This document shows positions 7,012-63,296 of a DNA stretch of 64,000 nucleotides, in pieces. The stretch's first letter is position 1. Each line of letters begins with the position of its first letter. The stretch comes from an uncultured Candidatus Saccharibacteria bacterium (GTDB lineage: Bacteria; Patescibacteriota; Doudnabacteria; UBA920): NCBI GenBank assembly GCA_964436545.1, contig CAYTCJ010000001.1:78392-142391 (forward strand), given 5' to 3'. The notes beneath the pieces are model-generated. The model made no database searches. It saw only the letters and a list, made by a program, of their open reading frames with translations, and had not been told where the DNA came from. A program made the translations under genes and the position numbers.

Positions 7012-8418
7012 ATGGCACAGCATCAGCAAAAATTAAAACAAGTTGTAGAGCGGATTCGGTTTTTGTCATCTAATCAAGAAAAAGCGTATGTTTACCACGG
7101 GTCTACCAATACCACCCGAGCTTTGAAGTTTAAAAAAAATCACGTTGTGGATTTAAGTGATTTTGGCAATATTTTGGACATTGATGTGCAAAGTCAAACG
7201 GTAATTTGTGAGCCCAATGTGCCTATGGATAGGTTAGTGGAGGCGACTTTAAAGTATGGTTTAGTACCGCCGGTAGTTATGGAATTTCCCGGTATTACCG
7301 TGGGCGGGGGGATTTCCGGAGGAGCCGGAGAAAGCAGTTCGTTTAAACATGGTTTGTTCCATAATACGGTATTGGAAATGGAAATTGTGTTAGGTAATGG
7401 GGAAGTCGTTAAGGCTTCGCGAGAACAACATTCGGATTTATTTTGGGGAGTGGCGGGCGCTCTGGGTACTTTGGGGATAATTACCCAAGTTAAATTAAAA
7501 TTAATCTCTGCGAAAAAATTTGTTAAGGTGGAATATCAAACCGTTAAAAATTTTAGTCAAATGCAGGAAGTGTTAACGAGTTATGCCAAAACCACAGAAT
7601 ATGATTTTATGGAAGGGATTATGTACACTGCCAAATTGGGCGTTGTAATTTTGGGAAAGATGACCGATATTAGTGAGAAACCGGAAGTAATTGGTTTAAA
7701 TAAATCTTGGGGGAGGTGGTATTATAAGCATATTCAGTTTAGATTAAAAAATAAAATTTTTTGCGATTATTTCCCTTTGAGGGATTTTTTATTTCGTTAC
7801 GACAGAGGGGCTTTTTGGATGGGAGAGTATTTTTTTAAATTATTTCATTTGCCTGCCAATCGCCTAACTAAATGGATTTTTAATGCTTGGCTAAACACTC
7901 GGGCATTGTATCGCGCTTTGCATTCCGCCAATTTGGCGCAAAAATATATTATTCAAGATTTATGTTTACCGGCGTCAAAGGTGTGGGAGTTTTGTAAATT
8001 TTTGGAGAAACATTATAAAATTTACCCGTTGTGGTTTATTCCCTTAAAACCGGAAAGTCAACCGTGTCAATTATCCTTTGCCAATTTACCCGGCGAAGCT
8101 TTAGTGAGTATCGGAGTGTATGGCACGAGTGGTTTAATTAATCGGCGGGAATTGAAGAAAAATATTTTATTAAGTCAAAAATTGCAAAGTTTAGGCGGGA
8201 GAAAATGGTTTTATGCGACTAACTATTATTCCCGAACAGAGTTTTGGAAAATTTATAATCTTAAATGGTACGGTAGAATGCGAACCAAATATTCCGCCAA
8301 AAATTTATTTCCCGATATTTTTACTAAACTCACCACCAATGTTCAGAGTAAACCGGAAATTTTTAAAGGGTTTTTTAGGTTTTTGTTACACAAGAAGTAT
8401 TTAAAACTAAAAAGTTAA
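7012..8418 (+). CDS. FAD-binding (PCMH-type) oxidoreductase, DHCR24/Diminuto-like
   Basis: Collinear similarity to 24-dehydrocholesterol reductase: GITVGGGISGGAGESSSFKHGLF, DLFWGVAGALGTLGII, KSWGRWYYKHIQ, IYPLWFIPL. Confidence 0.7.
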   Translation: MAQHQQKLKQVVERIRFLSSNQEKAYVYHGSTNTTRALKFKKNHVVDLSDFGNILDIDVQSQTVICEPNVPMDRLVEATLKYGLVPPVVMEFPGITVGGGISGGAGESSSFKHGLFHNTVLEMEIVLGNGEVVKASREQHSDLFWGVAGALGTLGIITQVKLKLISAKKFVKVEYQTVKNFSQMQEVLTSYAKTTEYDFMEGIMYTAKLGVVILGKMTDISEKPEVIGLNKSWGRWYYKHIQFRLKNKIFCDYFPLRDFLFRYDRGAFWMGEYFFKLFHLPANRLTKWIFNAWLNTRALYRALHSANLAQKYIIQDLCLPASKVWEFCKFLEKHYKIYPLWFIPLKPESQPCQLSFANLPGEALVSIGVYGTSGLINRRELKKNILLSQKLQSLGGRKWFYATNYYSRTEFWKIYNLKWYGRMRTKYSAKNLFPDIFTKLTTNVQSKPEIFKGFFRFLLHKKYLKLKS

Positions 8419-10284: not shown

Positions 10285-11988
10285 ATGCAGAAAAAGTGGA
10301 AAGTCAAGCCGAAAGTTCCCAGTGAATTAGCATCAAGATATGAAAATTTTGATCCGTTTTTAGCGCAACTGTTATATAATCGGGGACTTACTGAGTCGGA
10401 TCAAATTACAGAATTCTTAAACACCGAATACGAAAGGCTACATAGCCCTTTTTTATTTAAGGATATGAAAAAAGCGGTTAAGCGAATTTGGCAAGCCATT
10501 GAGCAACAGGAAAAAATTTGTATTTACGGCGATTACGATGCCGATGCCATTACGGCCAGTGTGGTTTTACTCCAGACTTTTCGTTATTTGGGGGTGGAAG
10601 CAGGTTACTACATCCCAGACAGGTTTAGCGAAGGTTATGGGATTAATTTGCAAGCTTTGGAAAGTCTTAAAAATCAAGGGGTTAAATTGATTATTACGGT
10701 TGATTGCGGAACTAATGCCCGAGAGGCAGGCGAATGGTGTAAAGAGCATAATATTGATTTGATAATTTCCGACCACCACGAAATTATTGGCGAAATGCCT
10801 AAGGCTTTTGCGCTCATTAATCCTAAAAATCCACAAGAGATGTATCCGGACCGAGAAATTACCGGAGTGGGGGTGGCGTTTAAGGTGGCGTGTGGAATAT
10901 TAAAAAATCAAAAATCAAAAATCAAAAATCAAAATTTTATGGAAGGTTGGGAAAAGTGGCTTTTAGATTTAGTGGCCATTGGCACAGTTGCCGATTGTCA
11001 TAAGCTGTTAGGGGAGAATCGAATTTTGGTGAAGTTTGGTTTAAAGGTATTGGCTAAAACCAAATGGCTCGGGCTTCAAGCGCTTATAGCTTCTGCCGGC
11101 TTGGATTTTAACCGGCAGTTACCCGATACTTATACTTTAGGCTTTGTGCTTGCTCCTCGGCTGAATGCCACGGGTCGGTTAGAGCATGCCGGTTTGGCAG
11201 TAGATTTGTTAATGTGTAGCGATGCCATTAAAGCCCAGCAGTCGGCTATGGCCATTGAACAACTGAATCTCAAGCGCCAAGAAACCACGGCATTAATTTT
11301 GAGCGAGGCCCGAGAGCAGGCTTTGCAAATTCAAAATCGACCGGTGTTGGCCATTATGAATGCGCAGTGGCATAAGGGCGTCGTGGGGTTGGTGGCCGGA
11401 AAATTGGCAGAGGAATTTTACAAACCCACTTTTATTTTGGCACAAGAGGGAGCCGAGGCAACCGGCTCGGCTCGCACAGTGGGTAATTTTAATGTAGTGG
11501 ATGCTTTAACTTATTCCGCTAAACATTTAATTCGTTTTGGGGGGCACAAGCAAGCTGCGGGTTTAAGTTTGGATCCCAATAAGTTTGAAAATTTTTATAT
11601 CAGTCTGCTCGAGTTTGCCAACCAAAATCTAACCGAGGATGATTTATCACCCATATTGGAACTGGAAGCAGAGCTAAATGCTTCTGACCTACAACTTACA
11701 ACTTACAACTTACTCGCAAGCCTAGAGCCTTTTGGAGTGGGCAACTTTAAACCTAAGTTTCTAATTAAATCAGCGGAAATCATTTCGCAAAAACCCGTGG
11801 GTGCCAACCAGCAACATTTACAAATGCAAATTCAAATCGGCAGTAAGGTGATTCCGGCTATTGCGTTTAATTTTTCTCCGGTTAAAATTCCCGGTTTGGT
11901 AGATATAGCTTGTGAGTTGCTATTAGATGAGTGGCAAGGTAGAAAAAATTTAAAACTCAGAGTTATAGATATTATTGGAGTGAGTTAA
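10285..11988 (+). CDS. recJ: Single-stranded-DNA-specific exonuclease RecJ (contains two in-frame short tandem repeats)
   Basis: DHH motifs (YGDYDADAITAS, ISDHHE) and the DHHA1 region; repeat-encoded KNQKSKIKNQN and LQLTTYNLL segments. Confidence 0.85.
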   Translation: MQKKWKVKPKVPSELASRYENFDPFLAQLLYNRGLTESDQITEFLNTEYERLHSPFLFKDMKKAVKRIWQAIEQQEKICIYGDYDADAITASVVLLQTFRYLGVEAGYYIPDRFSEGYGINLQALESLKNQGVKLIITVDCGTNAREAGEWCKEHNIDLIISDHHEIIGEMPKAFALINPKNPQEMYPDREITGVGVAFKVACGILKNQKSKIKNQNFMEGWEKWLLDLVAIGTVADCHKLLGENRILVKFGLKVLAKTKWLGLQALIASAGLDFNRQLPDTYTLGFVLAPRLNATGRLEHAGLAVDLLMCSDAIKAQQSAMAIEQLNLKRQETTALILSEAREQALQIQNRPVLAIMNAQWHKGVVGLVAGKLAEEFYKPTFILAQEGAEATGSARTVGNFNVVDALTYSAKHLIRFGGHKQAAGLSLDPNKFENFYISLLEFANQNLTEDDLSPILELEAELNASDLQLTTYNLLASLEPFGVGNFKPKFLIKSAEIISQKPVGANQQHLQMQIQIGSKVIPAIAFNFSPVKIPGLVDIACELLLDEWQGRKNLKLRVIDIIGVS

Positions 11989-12163: not shown

Positions 12164-12655
12164 ATGAAACTCATTATTTATACCGATGGGGGAGCGCGGG
12201 GTAACCCGGGTCCGGCGGGGATTGGGGTAGTAATCACCAACGAAGCCGGAGAAATTCTTGGTAAACATCAACAATACATTGGTAAAGCTACCAACAATGT
12301 GGCGGAGTATAAGGCGCTCATCCTTGCGCTTCAGAAAGTGCAGGAAATTCTAGATATCAAATATCAAATATCAAATCAGATTCATCTCCCCCCTCCCTTA
12401 CCCTCCCCACAACAAGGGGGAGGGAATTTGAATCTGGAAATTAGAATGGATAGTGAGTTGATTGTTCGGCAGATGCAGGGGAGGTATAAAATCAAAGACC
12501 CCACACTTCAGGTTTTGGCGGGTCAGGTATTAACTTTAATTAAAAATTTTCATCTCGTGAATTTTACGCACATCCCCAGAGCGCAAAATCAGGAGGCTGA
12601 TACTTTAGTTAACTCAGCGATCGATGCTTATTTAGCGCAGGCTAATGAAGTTTAA
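12164..12655 (+). CDS. rnhA: Ribonuclease HI with about 24-aa repeat/hairpin-encoded insertion
   Basis: IYTDGGARGNPGPAGIGVVI, NNVAEYKALILAL and MDSELIVRQM motifs; insertion ILDIKYQISNQIHLPPPLPSPQQGGGNLNLE lies between conserved blocks. Confidence 0.85.
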   Translation: MKLIIYTDGGARGNPGPAGIGVVITNEAGEILGKHQQYIGKATNNVAEYKALILALQKVQEILDIKYQISNQIHLPPPLPSPQQGGGNLNLEIRMDSELIVRQMQGRYKIKDPTLQVLAGQVLTLIKNFHLVNFTHIPRAQNQEADTLVNSAIDAYLAQANEV

Positions 12656-16524: not shown

Positions 16525-16715
16525 AGTAAATAGTATAAAACTATAGCGAAGTCGCGATTCGCTTTTGTTGCTGGTAAAATGTCAGACGGTTAGGCTCGCC
16601 GTAAAAAGAGCAATAAGTGCAGACCGAATTTTCGGATTAAGGCAAAAGCAAGGTGGTACCGCGGGAAAACCCGCCCTTGTGAATAACTTATGGTTATTCT
16701 TAAAGGCGGGTTTTG
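16525..16715 (+). promoter_or_regulatory. T-box-like leader: conserved antiterminator box AAGGUGGUACCGCGG (16648-16665) followed by an intrinsic terminator (16668-16715)
   Basis: 13 of 14 match to the T-box consensus AGGGUGGNACCGCG; downstream hairpin AACCCGCCCTT...AAGGCGGGTTTT. Confidence 0.5.
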
Positions 16716-17300: not shown

Positions 17301-18680
17301 TTGTTATCAGTTATGACTCCCATTATCTTACATTTAGATATGAATAGTTATTTTGCCTCGGTGCTTCAGCAAGACAACCGGGCTTATAGAGGCAAGGTTT
17401 TAGGTGTGTGTGAGCATTTGGGCGGAATTATTATTTCTGCCAGCAAAGAAGCAAAAAAATGGGGTATAAAAACCGGCACGCCGGTGTGGGAAGCCAAAAA
17501 ACTTTATCCCAAAATTATTTTAACTCATACTACAGCGGAAAGGTTTAGGTTTTATACTCGTCGGTTAATTAAATTGGTTTCCGACTATACCGATCAGGTG
17601 GAAGTCTATAGCATAGATGAAGTGTTTCTTGATATTACGCGGACGTGTAATATCAGCCAATCAGCTTATCAGCATACAAGCTTGTCAGCTGGAGGGGGAG
17701 TTAATCCGTTTGCGGAAGCGGTAAATATGGCTTTGGAAATTAAACACCGCATGAAGCAGGAGGTGGGGGATTATTTAACTTGCAGTATTGGCATTGCGGA
17801 AAATAAAGTTTTAGCGAAAATCGGTTCAGATTTTAAAAAGCCGGATGGCATAGTAGTGATACAAAATTCTAAATCCGAAATTCTAAATCCGAAACAAATT
17901 TTAAATTCTAAATCCCAAATCTTAAATTTGCAAAAAGAAGATTTGTATCATTGCTTAAAGCTCACAGATGTGCCGGGAATTGGGGAGAGACAAGCAAAAA
18001 ATTTACATGCTCTAGGCATTAAAACTTTAGTGGATTTAAAACATTATCCCCAAAGTCATTTAATGGCTCGTTTTGGTAGAATTACCGGACATCATTTGCA
18101 TAATTTAGGCCAATTAAATGCTTCGTGGAAAACTTTGGTTCATCAACAACAAGAAATTAAATCAATCGGTCATATGTACACTTTGCCTAAAGAGTATCGA
18201 AAGCCGGAATTTTTTGAACCCGTGTTATTTAAACTGTGCGAGATGGTGGCTAGGAGGCTGAGGCGGAAAAATTTAGAAGGGAATGTAATCCATGCTTTTT
18301 GTTATTTTGAAGACCATCAAAATTGCGGTAATAGTTTGAAGGTGGGGGATTATATAAGTGATGGGCGGGAAATTTTTAGGTATGCCTCGGATATTTTAAA
18401 AATTTTAAATTCCCCCGCCTTCGGCACCCCCTCTTTGGCCACAGAGGGGGGAGGGGGAGTTAGGAAATTTAGCATGATTGGTATTACCATATCTAATTTA
18501 AGACCAGCCACAGGGCAATTAAGTTTATTTGGGCATAAAGAAGAGAATACAGGGTTATTAAAAGCTTTAGATAAGATTAATAACAAATATGGCGAATTCA
18601 CCGTAGCTCGTGCGCCAATTTTAGCTACCGGCAAAGTTTTTCGCGACAGTGTGGGTTTTGGCAGAGTTAAAGAGCTCTAG
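17301..18680 (+). CDS. dinB: DNA polymerase IV (Y-family) with in-frame repeat and hairpin insertions
   Basis: ILHLDMNSYFASV, SIDEVFLDIT and the PGIGERQAKNLHALGIKTLVDL HhH motif; inserts NSKSEILNPKQILNSKSQILNLQ and NSPAFGTPSLATEGGGGVRKF. Confidence 0.85.
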   Translation: MLSVMTPIILHLDMNSYFASVLQQDNRAYRGKVLGVCEHLGGIIISASKEAKKWGIKTGTPVWEAKKLYPKIILTHTTAERFRFYTRRLIKLVSDYTDQVEVYSIDEVFLDITRTCNISQSAYQHTSLSAGGGVNPFAEAVNMALEIKHRMKQEVGDYLTCSIGIAENKVLAKIGSDFKKPDGIVVIQNSKSEILNPKQILNSKSQILNLQKEDLYHCLKLTDVPGIGERQAKNLHALGIKTLVDLKHYPQSHLMARFGRITGHHLHNLGQLNASWKTLVHQQQEIKSIGHMYTLPKEYRKPEFFEPVLFKLCEMVARRLRRKNLEGNVIHAFCYFEDHQNCGNSLKVGDYISDGREIFRYASDILKILNSPAFGTPSLATEGGGGVRKFSMIGITISNLRPATGQLSLFGHKEENTGLLKALDKINNKYGEFTVARAPILATGKVFRDSVGFGRVKEL

Positions 18681-31940: not shown

Positions 31941-32161
31941 TTTTTAAAAAAATAGATGTTTACAATCTATTTTAAAAGCTTGTAGTCACTTTTTGTTTTG
32001 GAATAATTTCAATATCAAAATTTATAATTTTAAAAAGCGGAGCATTTATTACAAGGCTTCGAATTTTTATTTGAAAATTTTTATTAGTAGATTACATGGC
32101 GGAGTAATTTGTTATATGGCAATTTGGAATAATCCATAATGGAATACTATCATATAAGTAT

Positions 32162-32383
32162 ATGCCGAGAGCAATTTATCAAGATGAGCATAAAAATATC
32201 GTTGAGCGTTTGAAAAAAGCGCGTTTTGAAGCCGGTATGGGGCAAATTGAAGTAGCAAAAAAACTTGGAAGAACTCAGTCTTATATTTCTAAAATTGAAT
32301 CAGGTCAAAGACGATTTGATATTTTGCAACTCAAAGAGTTTGCAAAACTTTATAAAAAAACCCTAGATTACTTTGTAAAATAA
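32162..32383 (+). CDS. HTH XRE-family transcriptional regulator; candidate restriction-modification controller (C) protein
   Basis: 73-aa Cro/C1-type HTH (QIEVAKKLGRTQSYISKIESGQ); stop overlaps the start of the next gene (TAATATG). Confidence 0.65.
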   Translation: MPRAIYQDEHKNIVERLKKARFEAGMGQIEVAKKLGRTQSYISKIESGQRRFDILQLKEFAKLYKKTLDYFVK

Positions 32384-32384
32384 T

Positions 32385-32957
32385 ATGCAAATTTTAGAAC
32401 ATAAAGCAAAAGTGTTTGGTTTGGAATGTAAGCTTGAGCTTTTGCATTTTGATAAAAATGATAGTAAGGAATGGAAGAGGATTTTTGACATTTGGAAAGA
32501 GCTTAAATTAGGGTTAAGAAAATATAAGTCTAGAGAACCTAATATGCCAGAAGGATTATCAGAAGTAGCTTTTTGTCTTTGGTCTGGCTCGGCTCGGTAC
32601 GTAAAACTTAAAGGCTCTAAAAAAGGAATTGCAGGCTCATTTGATACATTTGATTTAAAAAATAATAAAGCTCAACAGATAAAGGCTTGTAGTATTGAGT
32701 TTGATTTAACTTCGTTTGGACCAAAATCAAAATGGGATGATTTATATTTTATAGATTTTTATAATGACGGAAAAGTAGACGGTAAGTTTGATGTATATTT
32801 AATCTCAAATAAATACATTAAGAATCAATCACTCAACAAAAATGAGTTTTTTACCGATCAACAGAAACAAAAGAGAAGACCGCGTTTTGGAATTAAAAAA
32901 GAGATTATTCAAAAATATAGAATTAAGCCTTTGGCAACAAAAGTAAAAGTTTGGTAA
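32385..32957 (+). CDS. Putative type II restriction endonuclease (no family recognised by eye)
   Basis: 190 aa, translationally coupled to the C-protein gene; stop abuts the stop of the convergent C5-methyltransferase gene. Confidence 0.4.
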   Translation: MQILEHKAKVFGLECKLELLHFDKNDSKEWKRIFDIWKELKLGLRKYKSREPNMPEGLSEVAFCLWSGSARYVKLKGSKKGIAGSFDTFDLKNNKAQQIKACSIEFDLTSFGPKSKWDDLYFIDFYNDGKVDGKFDVYLISNKYIKNQSLNKNEFFTDQQKQKRRPRFGIKKEIIQKYRIKPLATKVKVW

Positions 32958-34535
32958 TTAATCCAGTGCTTTCATTATTTGTTTTGCCAAAGCTTCGATG
33001 ACTGGAACACTCACAGAATTTCCTGCTTGTTTATATAAGGCAGAATCTGAAATTTTTGGCAGAACATAATCTTTCGGAAAACCTTGAATTCTAAAACATT
33101 CCAAAGGGGTTAATTTTCGAATCCCTTTTTTATCAATAATTATTGGAACATTATGTCCGCCCATTCCCATATTTGCAGTTAATGTTGGGCAAACACCACT
33201 TTTGTTTTCTCTTACATACTGCCTGCGCCATTGGTAGACTTTACCTTCCTCTTTTACATAATTTTTTAGCTTTTCAAATAATGGTTTGTTATTATAATAA
33301 TATTTTACTGGGACATCTTTCTCTAGTAAATCAGTAATTTTAGTATTTAATCTAACTGGACTAGGAAATTCAAATTTGTCTGAATAAATCTTATTTTTAA
33401 AACCTACAATATATATCCTTTCTCGATTTTGAGGGATATTTCCATATTCCATAGTGTTTAAAACCTTAATTTTTATATAGTAGCCTAAGCTTTGTAATGT
33501 CTCCCCAATAATTTTAAATGTTTTGCCTCCGTCATGACTCTTTAAGTTTTTTACATTTTCCAAAAGAAAACCTGCTGGTTTTCTAGCTTCTAAAATTCTT
33601 GCAATATCAAAAAATAAGTTCCCTCTTCCTTTTTCATCATTAAATCCTTGCCTATAACCTGCAATAGAAAAAGCCTGACAAGGAAAACCACCTAACAGAA
33701 AATCAAATTTTGGTAAATCATCAATTCCAATTTTTCTGATATCTTCAATAACTAGTTTTGTATCTTTAAAATTTAGATCATAAGTATCCTTGCATTGTGG
33801 TTCAAAATCATTTGCGAAAACAGTTTTAAATCCGGCATTTTCAAAACCGAGTCTAATTCCTCCCACTCCAGCAAATAAATCAATTGTTTTAAAATCAAAA
33901 TTGGTTTTTTTCGTTTCTATTTCCCCTGATGTATTATTTGGATTACTAATGACTTGAATGACAACGCCTCTGACTTCAACATCAGCTCGAAATAATGTAG
34001 GCATGTTTGGATTTCTTGGTTCTAAATTAAAGCCCTTTCCTTTTCTGTAAAGTTTTTTTAGTGTAGCTTGATTATCGTCGATAATAGCAACAACTGTTTG
34101 GCCATTTTCAGCCACTGATTGATGTTTAATTATTACAACATCACCATCAAAAATTCCATCGTTAATCATAGAATTTCCTACGACTCGGAGTGCGTAATAA
34201 CCCTCCGATGTTTTTATTTGGGGGTTAATTACCGATATGGATCCATTGCGTTCTTCAATTGCCGGTAGGGGATAGCCCGCTCTAATATTGCCAATTATTG
34301 GGATTTCAATTATTGATTTTATTTGTTTTTTTAGTGTTAAACTTCTTGCAGAATTTTGGGATTTGGCAAGATAACCTTTAATTTTTAACGAATTAATATG
34401 TTCGTGGATAGTGGAAACTGCTTTAAGTCTTAATTTTTTTCGTATTTCTTCAATTGTTGGCGAAATACCGTTTTCAGCGATGTAGGTATTTATAAAATCA
34501 AAGACTTGTTTTTGTTTTTTAGTAAGGGATAGCAT
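32958..34535 (-). CDS. Fusion protein: LexA-like repressor (wHTH plus S24 autopeptidase) fused to a DNA (cytosine-5)-methyltransferase
   Basis: N-terminal 200 aa collinear with E. coli LexA (LTKKQKQVFDFI..., cleavage site AG in IRAGYP, GNSM Ser, ATLKKL Lys); C-terminal FKTIDLFAGVGG (motif I), GGFPCQAFSIAG (motif IV) and ENV (motif VI) of C5-MTases. Confidence 0.8.
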   Translation of the reverse strand: MLSLTKKQKQVFDFINTYIAENGISPTIEEIRKKLRLKAVSTIHEHINSLKIKGYLAKSQNSARSLTLKKQIKSIIEIPIIGNIRAGYPLPAIEERNGSISVINPQIKTSEGYYALRVVGNSMINDGIFDGDVVIIKHQSVAENGQTVVAIIDDNQATLKKLYRKGKGFNLEPRNPNMPTLFRADVEVRGVVIQVISNPNNTSGEIETKKTNFDFKTIDLFAGVGGIRLGFENAGFKTVFANDFEPQCKDTYDLNFKDTKLVIEDIRKIGIDDLPKFDFLLGGFPCQAFSIAGYRQGFNDEKGRGNLFFDIARILEARKPAGFLLENVKNLKSHDGGKTFKIIGETLQSLGYYIKIKVLNTMEYGNIPQNRERIYIVGFKNKIYSDKFEFPSPVRLNTKITDLLEKDVPVKYYYNNKPLFEKLKNYVKEEGKVYQWRRQYVRENKSGVCPTLTANMGMGGHNVPIIIDKKGIRKLTPLECFRIQGFPKDYVLPKISDSALYKQAGNSVSVPVIEALAKQIMKALD

Positions 34536-35885: not shown

Positions 35886-35945
35886 TACCCTCCTTCCTTT
35901 GTGGTCTTATTCGCGCGAATAAGACCACAAAGGGGGAGGTTTTAA
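35886..35945. repeat. Long perfect palindrome, C-rich/G-rich flanked (terminator-like; related to the hairpin-element family)
   Basis: CCTTTGTGGTCTTATTCGCG / CGCGAATAAGACCACAAAGG 20-bp arms flanked by CCCTCC...GGGGGAGG. Confidence 0.6.
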
Positions 35946-42795: not shown

Positions 42796-42840
42796 AAGAA
42801 AATAAGAAAAGCGCGCCGGTGGATGGTACCGGCGCGCGGG
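42796..42840 (-). terminator. Intrinsic terminator on the minus strand (GC hairpin plus U-run)
   Basis: Minus strand reads GCGCGCCGGUACCAUCCACCGGCGCGC followed by UUUUCUUAUUUUCUU. Confidence 0.6.
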
Positions 42841-42849
42841 AAAGCTTGA

Positions 42850-43047
42850 TCACTTGCGCGGAAAGCACTCGTGATCGGCTCGCCCCGCCCACTCAACGGT
42901 GGGCGACGGTTGTTTCGGGGGTTCCGCCGGCGGTCGCACCGGCGGGCGGGGGTGCTCAAGTGAGCAACCCCCTGAAGTGGTGGGGGTGGGCAGGGCGTCG
43001 GCCGCATGGCGGTCGACCTCCGGCCCGTGAGGATCCCATTCTTGCAT
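42850..43047 (-). CDS. GC-rich small ORF (65 aa, Pro-rich) with consensus RBS; an alternative reading is a structured RNA
   Basis: AAAGGAGGATACC-ATG RBS, ORF spans a sharply GC-rich segment, and an intrinsic terminator follows immediately. Confidence 0.35.
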   Translation of the reverse strand: MQEWDPHGPEVDRHAADALPTPTTSGGCSLEHPRPPVRPPAEPPKQPSPTVEWAGRADHECFPRK

Positions 43048-45402: not shown

Positions 45403-45440
45403 AAACCCCGCCCTTTGCAAAGGGCGGGGTTTGTTTTTTA
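45403..45440 (+). terminator. Intrinsic terminator
   Basis: CCCCGCCCTTTGCAAAGGGCGGGG perfect hairpin followed by TTTGTTTTTT. Confidence 0.75.
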
Positions 45441-45772
45441 TCCCCTCTGAGGGGAATCATACACAGTAGCGGGTGAGTAAGACGAATATTCACACTTTGT
45501 CATTCCGGAATTCTGCTCTTTGTCCCAAAGGGCGGAATATCCGGAATCCAGTTATCATAGAAACTAAATTTTGGATTCCGTCTTAGGTGTACTTGCCCAG
45601 GATGATACCAGAGTTATAAAAAGGGTAATTAAACTTTATGAAAATATTTTATTACATAAATCAAAACATGATGATGCGAACCCGCTTGTGGAAGTGGCTA
45701 AATTGCGCGTGAGTTTTCTCCTTCGCAGTTTTGCCACCTTCACCAGGTAGGCAAAATTTTAGGGAGGAAAAA

Positions 45773-46615
45773 ATGAATTGCATTTACATCAGCGACACTC
45801 TGGGCGACGACAATGCCCGGGGTCGCATCACCACGCGTCTTTTGACGGGGATCGGCGAGTCTGTCTTCACCTCGGTCACCCCAATTGGGGTGGATAGCGA
45901 AGTAGAGGGGTTCGTTCAGTTGGTTGACCTGCTGGACGCAACCCGGGGGAACAAGGCGGTAATTCTGTTCAACGTCGCCCCTAGGGGCGTGAACAAGAAG
46001 CGACTGCCGAACGGTTCGCCGTTTGGACATCTGCGGGTGGGGAACGCGGATATTTTCCCGACTGTGGAGGGTCGGGTGCTTCCGCTCCTTCAAAATCTTT
46101 TGAACAGGCGCCTGCGGGTGCGAGTTCACGAGATTTGTCCAGAGGTGCTGGGGGCGGTCGGGATTCCGCGGTACCAGTGGAAGTACGTGACTTCCACGCA
46201 GTTCCGTTCCTACGAGTTCCTTCCTGACCTGGCCAATGCGGTCATGTCAGGTAAGGAAGTTCCGGGACGGGAAATGGCGGTGGCACGGATCCGTGGGGGC
46301 GGGGGTTTCGTCGGGATAGTGGACAAGTTCGGCAACATTAAAACAACGGCGTTGCCGAGCGACATCGGCTTTCGTCCCGGTCGCACGCTTGCCCTGGATC
46401 TTGGTGGCACAGAGGTTCGCCTCCCGTGCTACCCGAAACTCAAGGACGTCCCGTGTGGTACCCTCGCCGCGGTCGTGGGTTCGTCTGGCCTCTGGGTCGG
46501 GCGGGCGAACAAGCGGTTCGTTGAGATAGTTGTGCAGAAAGGGGACGCGTCGTCCCGTTTGTACGACCTCACCGGGGTCGCCGTGGCCCCGGGACTCAAA
46601 TTGCAGTTCGCGTAG
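45773..46615 (+). CDS. GC-rich, likely horizontally acquired gene; SAM hydroxide adenosyltransferase (DUF62 / fluorinase-chlorinase) family-like
   Basis: GGGAGG RBS 5 nt before ATG; about 60% GC by eye; motifs IYISDTLGDDNARG (compare SDLGTTDDS), VAPRGVN (compare VDPGVG), DKFGNIKTT (compare DxFGNV). Confidence 0.45.
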   Translation: MNCIYISDTLGDDNARGRITTRLLTGIGESVFTSVTPIGVDSEVEGFVQLVDLLDATRGNKAVILFNVAPRGVNKKRLPNGSPFGHLRVGNADIFPTVEGRVLPLLQNLLNRRLRVRVHEICPEVLGAVGIPRYQWKYVTSTQFRSYEFLPDLANAVMSGKEVPGREMAVARIRGGGGFVGIVDKFGNIKTTALPSDIGFRPGRTLALDLGGTEVRLPCYPKLKDVPCGTLAAVVGSSGLWVGRANKRFVEIVVQKGDASSRLYDLTGVAVAPGLKLQFA

Positions 46616-48630: not shown

Positions 48631-48663
48631 AACCCCTCCTGGAACAGGAGGGGGAGGGGGTGG
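48631..48663 (+). repeat. Hairpin element (forward copy) directly upstream of the DUF559 gene
   Basis: CCCCTCCTGGAACAGGAGGGGGAGGGGGTGG; ends 4 nt before the ATG and supplies GGAGG as RBS. Confidence 0.7.
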
Positions 48664-48667
48664 TAGA

Positions 48668-49018
48668 ATGAATTATCTTTATAACAATATTAAATTAAAA
48701 TTAGTTAGAAAGCACTTACGAAATAATTCCGGTTTGCCTGAGATTATTCTTTGGGAGCAATTAAGAGCAAGCAAGTTGGGAAAAAAATTTAGAAGACAAT
48801 ATGGTGTAGGTAAGTTTGTTCTCGATTTTTATTCTCCCCAAATTCGGTTGGGTATTGAATTAGACGGAGCTACGCATGATAACATAAAAAGTTTTGAGAA
48901 AGATATAATTAGGCAGAAATTTATTGAAAGCCAAAATATAAAAGTAATTAGATTCCAAAATAAAGATGTTTTAGAGAATTTAGAAGGGGTAATTAATGAA
49001 ATAAAAAAATATTTGTGA
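48668..49018 (+). CDS. DUF559 endonuclease-domain protein (Vsr-like fold)
   Basis: LPEIILWEQLRASKLG..FRRQYGVGKFVLDFYSPQIRLGIELDGATHD...KVIRFQNKDVLENLEGVINEI matches DUF559. Confidence 0.75.
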   Translation: MNYLYNNIKLKLVRKHLRNNSGLPEIILWEQLRASKLGKKFRRQYGVGKFVLDFYSPQIRLGIELDGATHDNIKSFEKDIIRQKFIESQNIKVIRFQNKDVLENLEGVINEIKKYL

Positions 49019-49020
49019 TA

Positions 49021-49060
49021 CCACCCCTTAGTCCCCTCCTATTTTAGGAGGGGAAAAAAG
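49021..49060 (-). repeat. Hairpin element (inverted copy) directly downstream of the DUF559 gene
   Basis: Reverse complement reads CCCCTCCTAAAATAGGAGGGGACTAAGGGGTGG, matching the upstream copy. Confidence 0.65.
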
Positions 49061-49065
49061 TATTT

Positions 49066-49139
49066 GCGGGATTCGTACAGTGGCAGTATGCGACCTTCCC
49101 AAGGTTGAGACGAGGGTTCGATTCCCTTATCCCGCTCCA
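49066..49139 (+). tRNA. tRNA-Gly (anticodon CCC)
   Basis: Manual fold: acceptor GCGGGAU/AUCCCGC, anticodon stem CGACC/GGUUG, loop UUCCCAA, T-loop TTCGATT, encoded CCA. Confidence 0.85.
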
Positions 49140-52435: not shown

Positions 52436-52463
52436 TTTGTTGTAATTAGGAGATATAAACAGA

Positions 52464-57339: not shown

Positions 57340-58698
57340 TTGAGAGGTTTTGGTCTATGGGTTATAATGGGTGGTATGAAACAGAACTCCCCCAGACCCC
57401 TTCTTTCGAAAAGAGGGAAGAGAGAGCTCCCTAAGGGAGAGAGAAAAAAGGTGCTGATTGCATTAAGCGGTGGAATTGACAGCGCGGTTTCGGCATATCT
57501 ACTTATCAAACAGGGCTTTGAGGTGGAAGGTGCGTTTATGAAGAATTGGACGAGCCAAGAGGGATTACTTAAAAACGAATGTCCGTGGCTTTCGGACAGG
57601 CGAGATGCCTTAAGGGTGGCCGGATTTTTAGGCATTAAACTGCATACGTTGGATTTTGAAAAGCAATACCAAAATACGGTAATGAAGTATTTTTTTTCCG
57701 AATACAAAGCCGGCCGAACCCCCAATCCGGATGTAATGTGCAATAAGGAAATTAAGTTTAAATTGTTATATAATTGGGCTCGCCATCACGGATTTGATTA
57801 TTTAGCTACGGGACATTATGCCCAAGTAGTAAGTAGTAAGTTAGTAAGTAATAAGTATGAAAAACAAAAAACTTACAACTCTACAACTTACAACTTACAA
57901 CTTTTTCGGAGTAAAGATGAATTCAAAGATCAAACTTACTTTATCTATAACATCAAAAGCGAACAATTGCCACATTTATTATTCCCAATTGGGGGGATGA
58001 AAAAAACCGCTGTGCGTGAGTTGGCGCGAAAAATAAAATTGCCCAATGCGGAAAGAAAAGAAAGTATGGGCCTCTGTTTTGTGGGTAAAATTCGGCTGAA
58101 AGATTTTTTACAACAAAAAATAAAAGCGAAGAAAGGGGAGATAGTGTTGGCTTCGGGTTTGTCATCTCGGCCTTTGAGCCGGGATCTAGAATTAAAGAAC
58201 TGGATTCCGGATAGCCTTTCGGGTGCACTCAAGGCTTCTGGAATGACAGAATTGGTTATTGGACAGCATTTTGGGCTTCATAACTACACTATTGGCCAAA
58301 GACAGGGGATACAAGTGGGCGGTAAAGGCGGGCCGTATTATGTTTTAAGTAAAGATTTAAAGCATAACCGACTTTATGTAACCAATGATCCCAATGACAA
58401 AAGGTTGTTAGTCAAAGAAGTGCAAATTCATAGTGTGAATTGGATAACTCCCCCTAACCCCCTCTTTGGAAAAGAGGGGGGAGGGAGAATTTCCCCTCTT
58501 AAAATAAGAGGGGATAAAGGGGTGATATTACTTGGTAGATATCGTCATCAGGGGGAGCTGGTGCCACTTACAGTATCTCAAATAAACCAAGATTTATATA
58601 AAATAATTTTTAAAACTCCACAAAAAGCTGTTGCCAGTGGGCAAAGTTTGGTATTATATAAAGGTAAGGAATGTGTGGGAGGGGGAGTAATTGGGTAA
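57340..58698 (+). CDS. mnmA: tRNA-specific 2-thiouridylase MnmA with three in-frame repeat/hairpin insertions
   Basis: PP-loop LIALSGGIDSAV, catalytic CNKEIKF and GLCFVG; insertions at 57387-57445, 57826-57903 and 58448-58524. Confidence 0.85.
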   Translation: MRGFGLWVIMGGMKQNSPRPLLSKRGKRELPKGERKKVLIALSGGIDSAVSAYLLIKQGFEVEGAFMKNWTSQEGLLKNECPWLSDRRDALRVAGFLGIKLHTLDFEKQYQNTVMKYFFSEYKAGRTPNPDVMCNKEIKFKLLYNWARHHGFDYLATGHYAQVVSSKLVSNKYEKQKTYNSTTYNLQLFRSKDEFKDQTYFIYNIKSEQLPHLLFPIGGMKKTAVRELARKIKLPNAERKESMGLCFVGKIRLKDFLQQKIKAKKGEIVLASGLSSRPLSRDLELKNWIPDSLSGALKASGMTELVIGQHFGLHNYTIGQRQGIQVGGKGGPYYVLSKDLKHNRLYVTNDPNDKRLLVKEVQIHSVNWITPPNPLFGKEGGGRISPLKIRGDKGVILLGRYRHQGELVPLTVSQINQDLYKIIFKTPQKAVASGQSLVLYKGKECVGGGVIG

Positions 58699-62996: not shown

Positions 62997-63296
62997 TTTT
63001 GTATTTTTAGATTATTTATGATTTTTGCTCTCCTGTTTTTTCCTCCCTTGCTTGTCCACCACAGCTTTAGCGACGGTGGAACGGGAGGAGTTAGGGGAGG
63101 GTGATAAAAGGTTTATTTATTAAAGAGTTTATCCAGCCCCGCTTGGTTGCCACAATAATATAAATTTTTGGTTAAATTTACACAAAAACCCGGGTTTTTG
63201 GCAATAAAGGAATATTTGGGTAAAAACCAGTATAAGAAAATTAAAACTCCGGCAAGAATAACGTAGAATAAAAATTTAAAATGTTTAAACATTTGT

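Follow-up and report, generated by a model that had tools for sequence, protein, structure and literature searches.

Two kinds of short palindromic repeat described in other bacteria are the closest known counterparts of the element analyzed here. The Rickettsia palindromic elements (RPEs; Ogata et al. 2000) are, as reviewed in PMC10969869, sequences of about 100–150 bp that lie in frame in housekeeping genes, and the repetitive extragenic palindromic (REP) sequences have a conserved GTAG or CGTC tetranucleotide at one end (PMC3733652). Our analysis of 64,000 nucleotides from an uncultured Candidatus Saccharibacteria bacterium (positions 78,392 to 142,391 of contig CAYTCJ010000001.1, assembly GCA_964436545.1; this whole stretch is called the window, and position 1 is its first nucleotide) concerns a GC-rich, hairpin-forming segment within dinB, the gene for a Y-family DNA polymerase IV. 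Comparison with related genes indicates that this segment is an insertion of a recently mobile, multi-copy palindromic DNA element, and we consider it probable (roughly 0.7–0.85) that it is selfish, dispersed, GC-rich and imperfectly palindromic, non-autonomous and RPE/REPIN-like, and that it occupies a permissive loop of the polymerase.

The dinB element resembles the RPEs in that both are palindromic selfish repeats found in frame in unrelated housekeeping genes of a reduced genome, and both would be translated as extra surface segments compatible with the fold of the protein. On the other hand, it is one third their size (about 53–57 bp), is GC-rich and has homopyrimidine/homopurine arms, and whereas the RPEs are confined to one genus and have no known enzyme, the window family spans many phyla and is linked to a nuclease. 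Its size and its host, a genome assigned to the Patescibacteria from its Doudnabacteria-like best hits, set it apart by the very description of the RPEs. The REP sequences, together with their REPIN (REP doublets forming hairpins) arrangement and the REP-associated tyrosine transposases (RAYTs), share with it the use of short hairpins, single or in inverted pairs, with a nuclease gene between two inverted units, and in both cases repeat type and enzyme are inherited together. However, the flanked gene here encodes a Vsr-like PD-(D/E)XK protein of the DUF559 family (PF04480) rather than an HUH Y1 enzyme, the ends read ..TAAC-N-CCCCC / GGGGG-N-GTTA.. or TGGTA / TGATA variants with no GTAG or CGTC, and the copies in bacteria of the candidate phyla radiation (CPR) are intragenic while REP copies are extragenic. 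The RPEs are therefore closest in behaviour and REP/REPIN-RAYT closest in genetic organization, and the element departs from both in defining features. A literature search on DUF559 with repeats, on intragenic repeats in CPR bacteria and on REPIN/RAYT/Vsr found no description of such a system, although the search was incomplete and prior work is possible.

The host gene and the parts of the element within it are as follows:

17313..18680, + strand: host gene, Y-family DNA polymerase IV (DinB), 455 aa; Pfam and PDB matches, catalytic motifs intact
18410..18462, + strand: DinB element proper, about 53–57 bp; same layout in loci L053, L043, L113, L016, L057 and L096, missing in 33 of 37 orthologs
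18410..18416, + strand: head, TTCCCCC
18417..18425, + strand: mini-hairpin, GCCTTCGGC
18427..18450, + strand: main hairpin, CCCCCTCT-TTGGCCAC-AGAGGGGG
18451..18462, + strand: tail, GAGGGGGAGTTA

The DinB open reading frame (ORF) matches Pfam IMS (E 1.8e-35), IMS_HHH_1 and IMS_C (E 1.7e-13); with both the IMS catalytic core and the IMS_C little finger (residues 283–404) present it is a Y-family DNA polymerase IV, and its best PDB match is DNA polymerase IV 7yll (E 1e-41). An initial annotation of the window, made from the sequence alone, had placed a member of a hairpin family at 18406–18470, coding in frame within the little finger. The segment is present, with its start one base later, as a 64-mer at 18407–18470; its translation in the DinB frame is NSPAFGTPSLATEGGGGVRKF (a peptide spanning the insert is, for example, ILNSPAFGTPSLATEGGGGVR), and it supplies residues ~366–385, inside the little finger as had been stated. 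The element proper reads in frame as ~SPAFGTPSLATEGGGGV, and the family consensus puts its right end at ...GGGGGAGTTA (18462). The AAATT / AAATTT inverted repeat that had been taken to flank the element is not a feature of it: the right-hand AAATTT is the K-F codons of the host gene, insert-free orthologs having E-F or K-F there, so this repeat marks no element terminus, and in AT-rich DNA it is nothing unusual.

Folded as single-stranded DNA, the segment forms a three-way structure of an outer stem, the GCC-TTC-GGC mini-hairpin and an 8-bp CCCCCTCT/AGAGGGGG hairpin, at a minimum free energy of -17.9 kcal/mol against -10.9 +/- 2.4 for shuffled sequences (z = -2.9; 1 of 200 shuffles equally stable). 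The tail 9-mer GGAGTTAGG occurs three times in the window (18456, 52375, 63087) where 0.29 occurrences are expected, the one at 63087 lying in an intergenic copy (63040–63106) whose tail had correctly been recognized as common to the two. Hairpins with a homopyrimidine/homopurine GC-rich arm number 10 in the window and 2.8 +/- 1.7 in Markov shuffles. Fold stability, tail recurrence and hairpin excess together rule out chance or low complexity as the origin of the segment. The orientation of the hairpins relative to replication was uninformative: a hairpin with its pyrimidine arm first reads identically on both strands, so an "all Y-type" result is a structural property and not an orientation. 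Rfam covariance models at gathering thresholds found only three tRNAs in the whole window and no match for the element.

Nor is the segment a conserved feature of DinB, an identity ruled out by an alignment of 37 orthologs in which 33 do not have it. It is present in four (the window protein P0001, and P0003, P0004 and P0005), all of which show ..EGG(G/E)GVR(K/E)F at this position, which we call site 3 and which lies between the last helix and the last strand of the little finger. The alignment has two further hypervariable spots, site 1 after CNI(R/S) in the palm and site 2 after KPDGIVVI.

Related copies, about 5–7 in the 64-kb window, are found in RNase HI, in MnmA, in an intergenic spacer and around a DUF559 gene (described below), which bears out the assignment of the dinB segment to a hairpin family:

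12377..12436, + strand: RNase HI copy, diverged, in frame; HLPPPLPSPQQGGGNL; 23-nt inverted arms
57385..57417, + strand: degenerate copy at the MnmA 5' end; AACTCCCCCAGACCCCTTCTTTCGAAAAGAGGG; weak fold
58444..58528, + strand: MnmA double-hairpin copy, in frame; head ATAACTCCCCC, two hairpins, tail GGGGTGATAT; fold z = -3.8
63040..63106, + strand: intergenic relative; tails GGAGTTAGG and GGGTGATA; fold alone not significant
17691..17707, + strand: 3' remnant of a second DinB copy at hot spot 1 (site 1); GGAGGGGGAGTTAATCC; intact copy at the same junction in relative L001

The DNA of two syntenic relatives, L001 and L003, was compared with the window at DinB and RNase HI. L003 has the element at the same right junction as the window (GGGGGAGTTAGG followed by GAATTT), and a junction of GGGGGAGTTAGG followed by RAATTT is common to L003, P0004 and P0005. 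In L001, site 3 is clean and an intact copy, CTCTCCCACCTTCGGCACCCCCTCTTTGGCCAAAGAGGGGGGAGGGGGAGTTA, is present at site 1. The window site-3 copy and the L001 site-1 copy are identical at 49 of 53 core positions (92%), while identity between the two dinB genes is 80% overall and 70% at synonymous third positions. The in-frame RNase HI copy is present in the window and in L003, where it is canonical (TCATAACTCCCCC...CCCCCTCTTATCTTAAGAGGGGG) and at the same site, and is absent from L001. These three patterns of presence and absence cannot be reconciled on any three-taxon tree without loss or repeated gain, so copies are gained and lost within about 20% nucleotide divergence with the reading frames kept.

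The structural question raised by the initial annotation, whether the insert disrupts or decorates the little finger, was addressed with an AlphaFold2 model built from the ortholog alignment (mean predicted local distance difference test score, pLDDT, 80.3). Residues ~366–385 are modelled as coil, with pLDDT below 50 at 371–382, between helix 351–365 and strand 386–394 of a little finger with the normal beta-alpha-beta-beta-alpha-beta order. Confidence is also low at residues 118–128 (the site-1 remnant), 189–201 (a tandem repeat at site 2) and 272–280, and in the C-terminal tail at 445–450 and 453–455. The sequence alignment with 7yll has gaps at sites 1 and 2, and its last aligned residue is 363. 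In the model, then, the insert decorates a permissive surface loop and interrupts no structural element.

Other repeats are found at the same three DinB sites. Upstream of the GC hairpin at site 3, L003 (at about 10960–11125), P0004 and P0005 have an extra inserted segment encoding LAPSHSASSGHAL, which looks like another repeat class stacked in the same loop. Hot spot 1 of the window gene has an AT-rich in-frame tandem repeat with an 8-nt unit, TATCAGCT (17651–17690), and hot spot 2 has one with a 14-nt unit, AAATTCTAAATCCG, translated as SKSEILNPKQILNSKSQILN (17864–17929). Peptides of this "NSKSEILN" type are also found at sites 1 and 2 of many orthologs, so these tandem repeats form a second in-frame repeat family in the gene, unrelated to the first.

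The family extends far beyond this genome. The pattern CCCCCTCT-N7-8-AGAGGGGGGAGGG, with 21 fixed bases, was searched for in genome contigs totalling 596 Gb, where our calculation gives an expectation of about 0.5 matches for uniform base composition and of fewer than 10 for as much as 70% GC; at least 113 genome contigs match. Phyla among the matches listed include Nitrospirota, Thermodesulfobacteriota/Deltaproteobacteria, Bacillota, Chloroflexota, Planctomycetes, Acidobacteria, KSB1, Omnitrophota and many CPR lineages, and in these matches each base of a GGAGTTA beyond the pattern, which the search did not require, is conserved at a level of from at least 70% to at least 90%. In full, the consensus reads (C)ATAAC-N-CCCCC...[one or two hairpins]...GGGGG-N-GTTAT(G), in which the head (..AAC-N-CCCCC) is complementary to the tail (GGGGG-N-GTTA..) and with it encloses one or two hairpins, each with a pure pyrimidine 5' arm and a pure purine 3' arm. 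Nitrospirae (L053, L043, L113), KSB1 (L016) and Saccharibacteria (L057) also have copies laid out exactly like the one in DinB, with head, GCCTTYGGC mini-hairpin, A, main hairpin and tail in this order; the mini-hairpin of L057 and L096 is GGCTTCGCC, in which the middle pair is inverted by a compensatory change. Perfect palindromes of about 52 nt also occur (L075), and L066 and L101 are also symmetric. A phage reservoir is not supported, as the motif was found once in 2.9 million viral contigs.

Among the named hits of the matches listed, 13 of 16 CPR copies lie inside long ORFs (those that run on for at least 40 codons on both sides) compared with 5 of 68 non-CPR copies, which are mostly intergenic. 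The CPR host genes, identified by eye, are MurC, MurB, MurD, SecA, LigA, UvrC, UvrD, TatD, a GT2 glycosyltransferase and another DinB (L068, at site 1). The G-rich arm is read in each of its three registers (RGGRGSY, KRGEGEL, EGGGGV) and the copies lie in both orientations, which fits insertion at the DNA level filtered for open frames only and not selection for one peptide. It follows from their composition that pure-pyrimidine and pure-purine arms cannot contain TAA, TAG or TGA in any frame on either strand, and this may explain why the elements are tolerated inside genes.

These data bear directly on the idea that the host itself selects the DinB insert, either as a Gly/Pro-rich flexible loop or as an mRNA hairpin that tunes translation or stability. 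The maintained frame, the stable hairpin (z = -2.9) and the surface exposure of the loop in the model are compatible with such a role. However, the same DNA encodes different peptides in unrelated genes through its three registers and two orientations, most orthologs have no insert, non-orthologous copies are more alike in nucleotide sequence than the genes that carry them, and copies in other phyla are intergenic, so that we give this idea almost no credence.

In two of the matching loci (L048 and L081) the element tail GGAGTT-ATG provides an apparent Shine-Dalgarno sequence and start codon for unrelated downstream genes, that of L048 being a 108-aa ferredoxin-like ORF; the elements may thus donate translation start signals.

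Several family hits run directly through GGAGTT-ATG into an ORF which in these relatives is a DUF559 protein (PF04480, E 4e-35), and the window has such a module of its own, followed by a tRNA at 49066:

48631..48667, + strand: upstream unit; hairpin CCCCTCC-TGGAACA-GGAGGGG and tail GAGGGGGTGGTAGA, abutting the ATG
48668..49018, + strand: DUF559 / Vsr-like PD-(D/E)XK nuclease gene, 116 aa, candidate trans-acting partner
49019..49054, + strand: downstream unit, after the stop codon TGA; head TACCACCCC, TTAG, hairpin TCCCCTCC-TATTT-TAGGAGGGGA

The downstream head TACCACCCC is the reverse complement of the upstream tail GAGGGGGTGGTAGA. The window protein is 42% identical to the L032 DUF559 protein, matches PDB 3hrl (E 9e-11) and keeps all of the invariant residues D53, E64, D66 and H70. 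DUF559 has been grouped with Vsr, structure 3hrl and the homing endonuclease I-Bth0305I in the PD-(D/E)XK superfamily (PMC3424549, PMC3239194).

The association of element and gene was measured non-circularly on 80 metagenome loci picked by DUF559 protein similarity alone, in which the hairpin was sought within 120 nt. It was found upstream of the gene in 66 of 76 cases and downstream in 65 of 73, with both in 53 loci; overall 131 of 149 DUF559 gene ends have it (88%), whereas among the ends of the other ORFs of these loci 13 of 186 do (7%; Fisher p 3e-56). The order of the parts does not vary (hairpin, mini-hairpin where present, tail, ATG ... stop, head, mini-hairpin, hairpin), GTTATGA / TCATAAC often contain the start and stop codons, and the same layout surrounds distant homologues (29–40% identity) in contigs of ~70% GC. 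The termini are of three types, AGTT, TGGT and TGAT, and head and tail agree in all 28 typable loci. The flank type tracks the protein tree, with 56% identity between DUF559 proteins within a type and 46% between types, and gene-less termini more than 300 nt away in these loci match the local flank type (16:1 and 6:1; hypergeometric p about 3.5e-4 by our own arithmetic). The element family is genetically coupled to DUF559 genes.

DUF559 homologues from a viral contig collection still carry the flanking hairpins. Many small "viral" contigs of IMG/VR (L204–L229, 4–9 kb, ~70% GC) have a DUF559 gene with hairpin / mini-hairpin / GGAGGGGG flanks.

The gene-bearing cassette is also mobile. In L198, a relative whose histidyl-tRNA synthetase is 77% identical, a DUF559 gene lies after an HD gene and is bracketed by near-identical direct repeats of element pieces, ~115 nt long (7344–7460 and 7875–7990), and the counterpart of this site in the window (52436–52463) is a 29-nt spacer with nothing inserted; no other pair of filled and empty sites is as clear for the cassette as a whole. 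At the site of the window cassette, between the phosphoenolpyruvate carboxylase gene and the tRNA, L198 holds a gene-less element.

We propose that a copy of the element was inserted into dinB at the DNA level and would on translation have given the little finger an additional, disordered loop, where it may persist because the loop is permissive and the homopyrimidine/homopurine arms are free of stop codons in all frames. A DUF559 nuclease would act in trans, nicking or cutting the extruded or single-stranded palindrome, after which host repair or recombination would copy the element, as with REP/REPIN-RAYT pairs or free-standing homing endonucleases. On this view, the copy in DinB would have arisen as a non-autonomous side product of this nuclease-repeat system and not a feature of the polymerase. 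By analogy with those systems we offer DUF559 as the mobilizing enzyme only tentatively, at a little under even odds. The broader proposition is somewhat more doubtful: that the DUF559 family are the trans partners of cross-phylum palindromes, forming a second, mechanistically distinct association of the REPIN/RAYT type with a PD-(D/E)XK enzyme, and that in CPR bacteria such repeats are forced into the loops of essential proteins, which they thereby remodel.

A number of points weigh against this account. To our knowledge, no cleavage or transposition activity of a DUF559 protein on these palindromes has been reported, and a 116-aa nuclease has no obvious strand-transfer function. The window DUF559 gene has TGGT-type flanks and the DinB copy is of the AGTT type, so that no nuclease cognate to the DinB copy is encoded in the 64-kb window; relative L198 has a DUF559 gene of the AGTT type (7525–7884). 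In gene-less copies the order is head-hairpins-tail, a permutation of the hairpin-tail-gene-head-hairpin order of the gene-bearing unit, so they are not simple internal-deletion derivatives. At the DinB and RNase HI sites the filled and empty orthologs, about 20% diverged, give no clean target-site duplication or exact boundary; one gene-less L198 copy has TATAGG on both sides. The translation of the DinB insert is suggested by the maintained frame only. Finally, the linkage could instead reflect DUF559 genes as preferred targets or passengers.

This last point can be developed into an account in which the dispersed palindrome is real and DUF559 is not its mobilizer: the gene would be a passenger or landing site, or the hairpins would be its own regulatory or insulating signals (the tail giving GGAG and ATG, the head giving TAA), and the element would spread by host recombination or template switching. 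The start and stop codons embedded in GTTATGA and TCATAAC fit such an account, and resident copies that recombine with each other would be expected to leave direct repeats like the ~115-nt pair in L198. Predicted inversion targets with inverted repeats on either side are enriched in DUF559 genes (PMC9881135), and a Caulobacter DUF559 protein, an endonuclease that damages DNA in vivo once a methyltransferase has been removed, has been interpreted as a repair nuclease (PMC12907096). Against this, the 88% versus 7% association has the same architecture from CPR bacteria to Proteobacteria-like contigs of 70% GC, flank type changes in step with the protein and with gene-less copies close by, and truncated DUF559 remnants between intact termini (L094, L069, L042, L062) are expected of a decaying selfish unit. 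We regard a bystander role for DUF559 as fairly unlikely.

Integron attC sites have R''/R' boxes (RYYYAAC / GTTRRRY) with conserved AAC/GTT, and the ..TAAC / GTTA.. termini of the window family resemble these. Both are imperfect palindromes behind a gene that fold as single strands, and one could suppose that the elements are attC-like sites, that DUF559 is the cassette of a tyrosine recombinase (integron-like or Xer-like) and that the DinB copy is a solitary site at a secondary target. The element-gene-element arrangements in L197, L198 and L115 and the different loci of the cassette in related genomes would suit such a scheme. However, the terminal triplets belong only to the AGTT type, GTT/AAC being missing from the TGGT and TGAT subfamilies (GGGGTGGTA, GGGGTGATAT), and the symmetric copies L075, L066 and L101 do not have the asymmetric extrahelical bases that attC needs. 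In addition, copies are scattered over many contigs and in housekeeping genes with no arrays, and the immediate neighbours of the DUF559 cassettes examined include housekeeping genes and no integrase. We therefore find an attC-like identity highly improbable. A classical REP/PATE hairpin moved by an HUH Y1 transposase (RAYT or IS200/IS605 TnpA) encoded elsewhere is, in our estimation, slightly less probable still: the short hairpins in inverted pairs, the single-strand-stable mini-hairpin and the dispersal in the genome speak for one, whereas the GTAG or CGTC tag is absent from the element ends, the gene in the RAYT position is DUF559 in 88% of cases, and no Y1 transposase lies in the neighbourhood of any copy examined.

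The preferred reading, a selfish palindrome coupled to DUF559, has partial parallels in three other systems. The miniature inverted-repeat transposable elements are matched in small size, in multiple copies and in the complementary head and tail, which correspond to terminal inverted repeats; deletion derivatives of the DUF559 unit do exist (L094, L069), and the solitary copies are permuted to head-hairpin-tail. The GC clusters of yeast are GC-rich elements of an AT-rich organelle genome. Repetitive hairpin-forming elements in sponge mitochondria are GC-rich hairpins of an organelle genome as well (PMC2800124). Like the window family these organellar hairpins invade AT-rich, compact genomes and sometimes coding regions, but they are unrelated in sequence and have no link to DUF559, while the window family is bacterial. 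The Vsr-like (EDxHD) homing endonuclease I-Bth0305I belongs to the same superfamily group as DUF559, and both would be small selfish nuclease genes at variable loci; I-Bth0305I has NUMOD DNA-binding domains and a group I intron, whereas DUF559 here is a bare domain of ~116 aa between palindromes.

If this reading is correct, in-frame invasion of essential genes in the manner of the RPEs would be common in Patescibacteria (MurB/C/D, SecA, LigA, UvrC/D, DinB, MnmA, RNase HI), with consequences for the annotation of CPR proteins, for the inflation of protein length, and for alignment and phylogeny. CPR genomes have almost no intergenic space. The stop-free arms would offer a simple explanation of how the elements survive inside genes, and a defined DNA of ~55 nt would become a testable substrate for DUF559, one of the larger uncharacterized nuclease families. 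A near-identical repeat in Nitrospirota, Thermodesulfobacteriota and CPR bacteria is unusual and suggests horizontal spread of the nuclease-repeat module or a strong constraint from shared recognition.

The window has other palindromes and compositional anomalies. A different hairpin family is found at 45403–45432 and 16666–16714 and includes a perfect 15+15 palindrome AAACCCCGCCCTTTG/CAAAGGGCGGGGTTT and AAAACCCGCCC.../...GGCGGGTTTT; the GLKPAPT/KPSPTE peptides at DinB site 3 of P0042, P0037 and P0016 look like copies of this family inserted in frame. A perfect 19+19 nt palindrome with no spacer, CCTTTGTGGTCTTATTCGC/GCGAATAAGACCACAAAGG, lies at 35896–35933. Between the genes for glutamine synthetase (- strand) and a YhhQ-like transporter an island of ~240 nt (42806–43042) stands out with about 70% GC where the genome has 40%. 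It contains no convincing ORF and matches nothing in Rfam even at E <= 1, and it may be an undescribed structured RNA. A 294-aa ORF at 45731–46615 lies in a stretch markedly richer in GC than its surroundings (47% over 46–48 kb, many local islands exceeding 70%), and may be recently acquired DNA. Finally, the 2 kb from 32001 to 34000 are atypical in composition, with 30% GC and near-zero GC skew, and overlap a 525-aa ORF on the minus strand (32958–34535).

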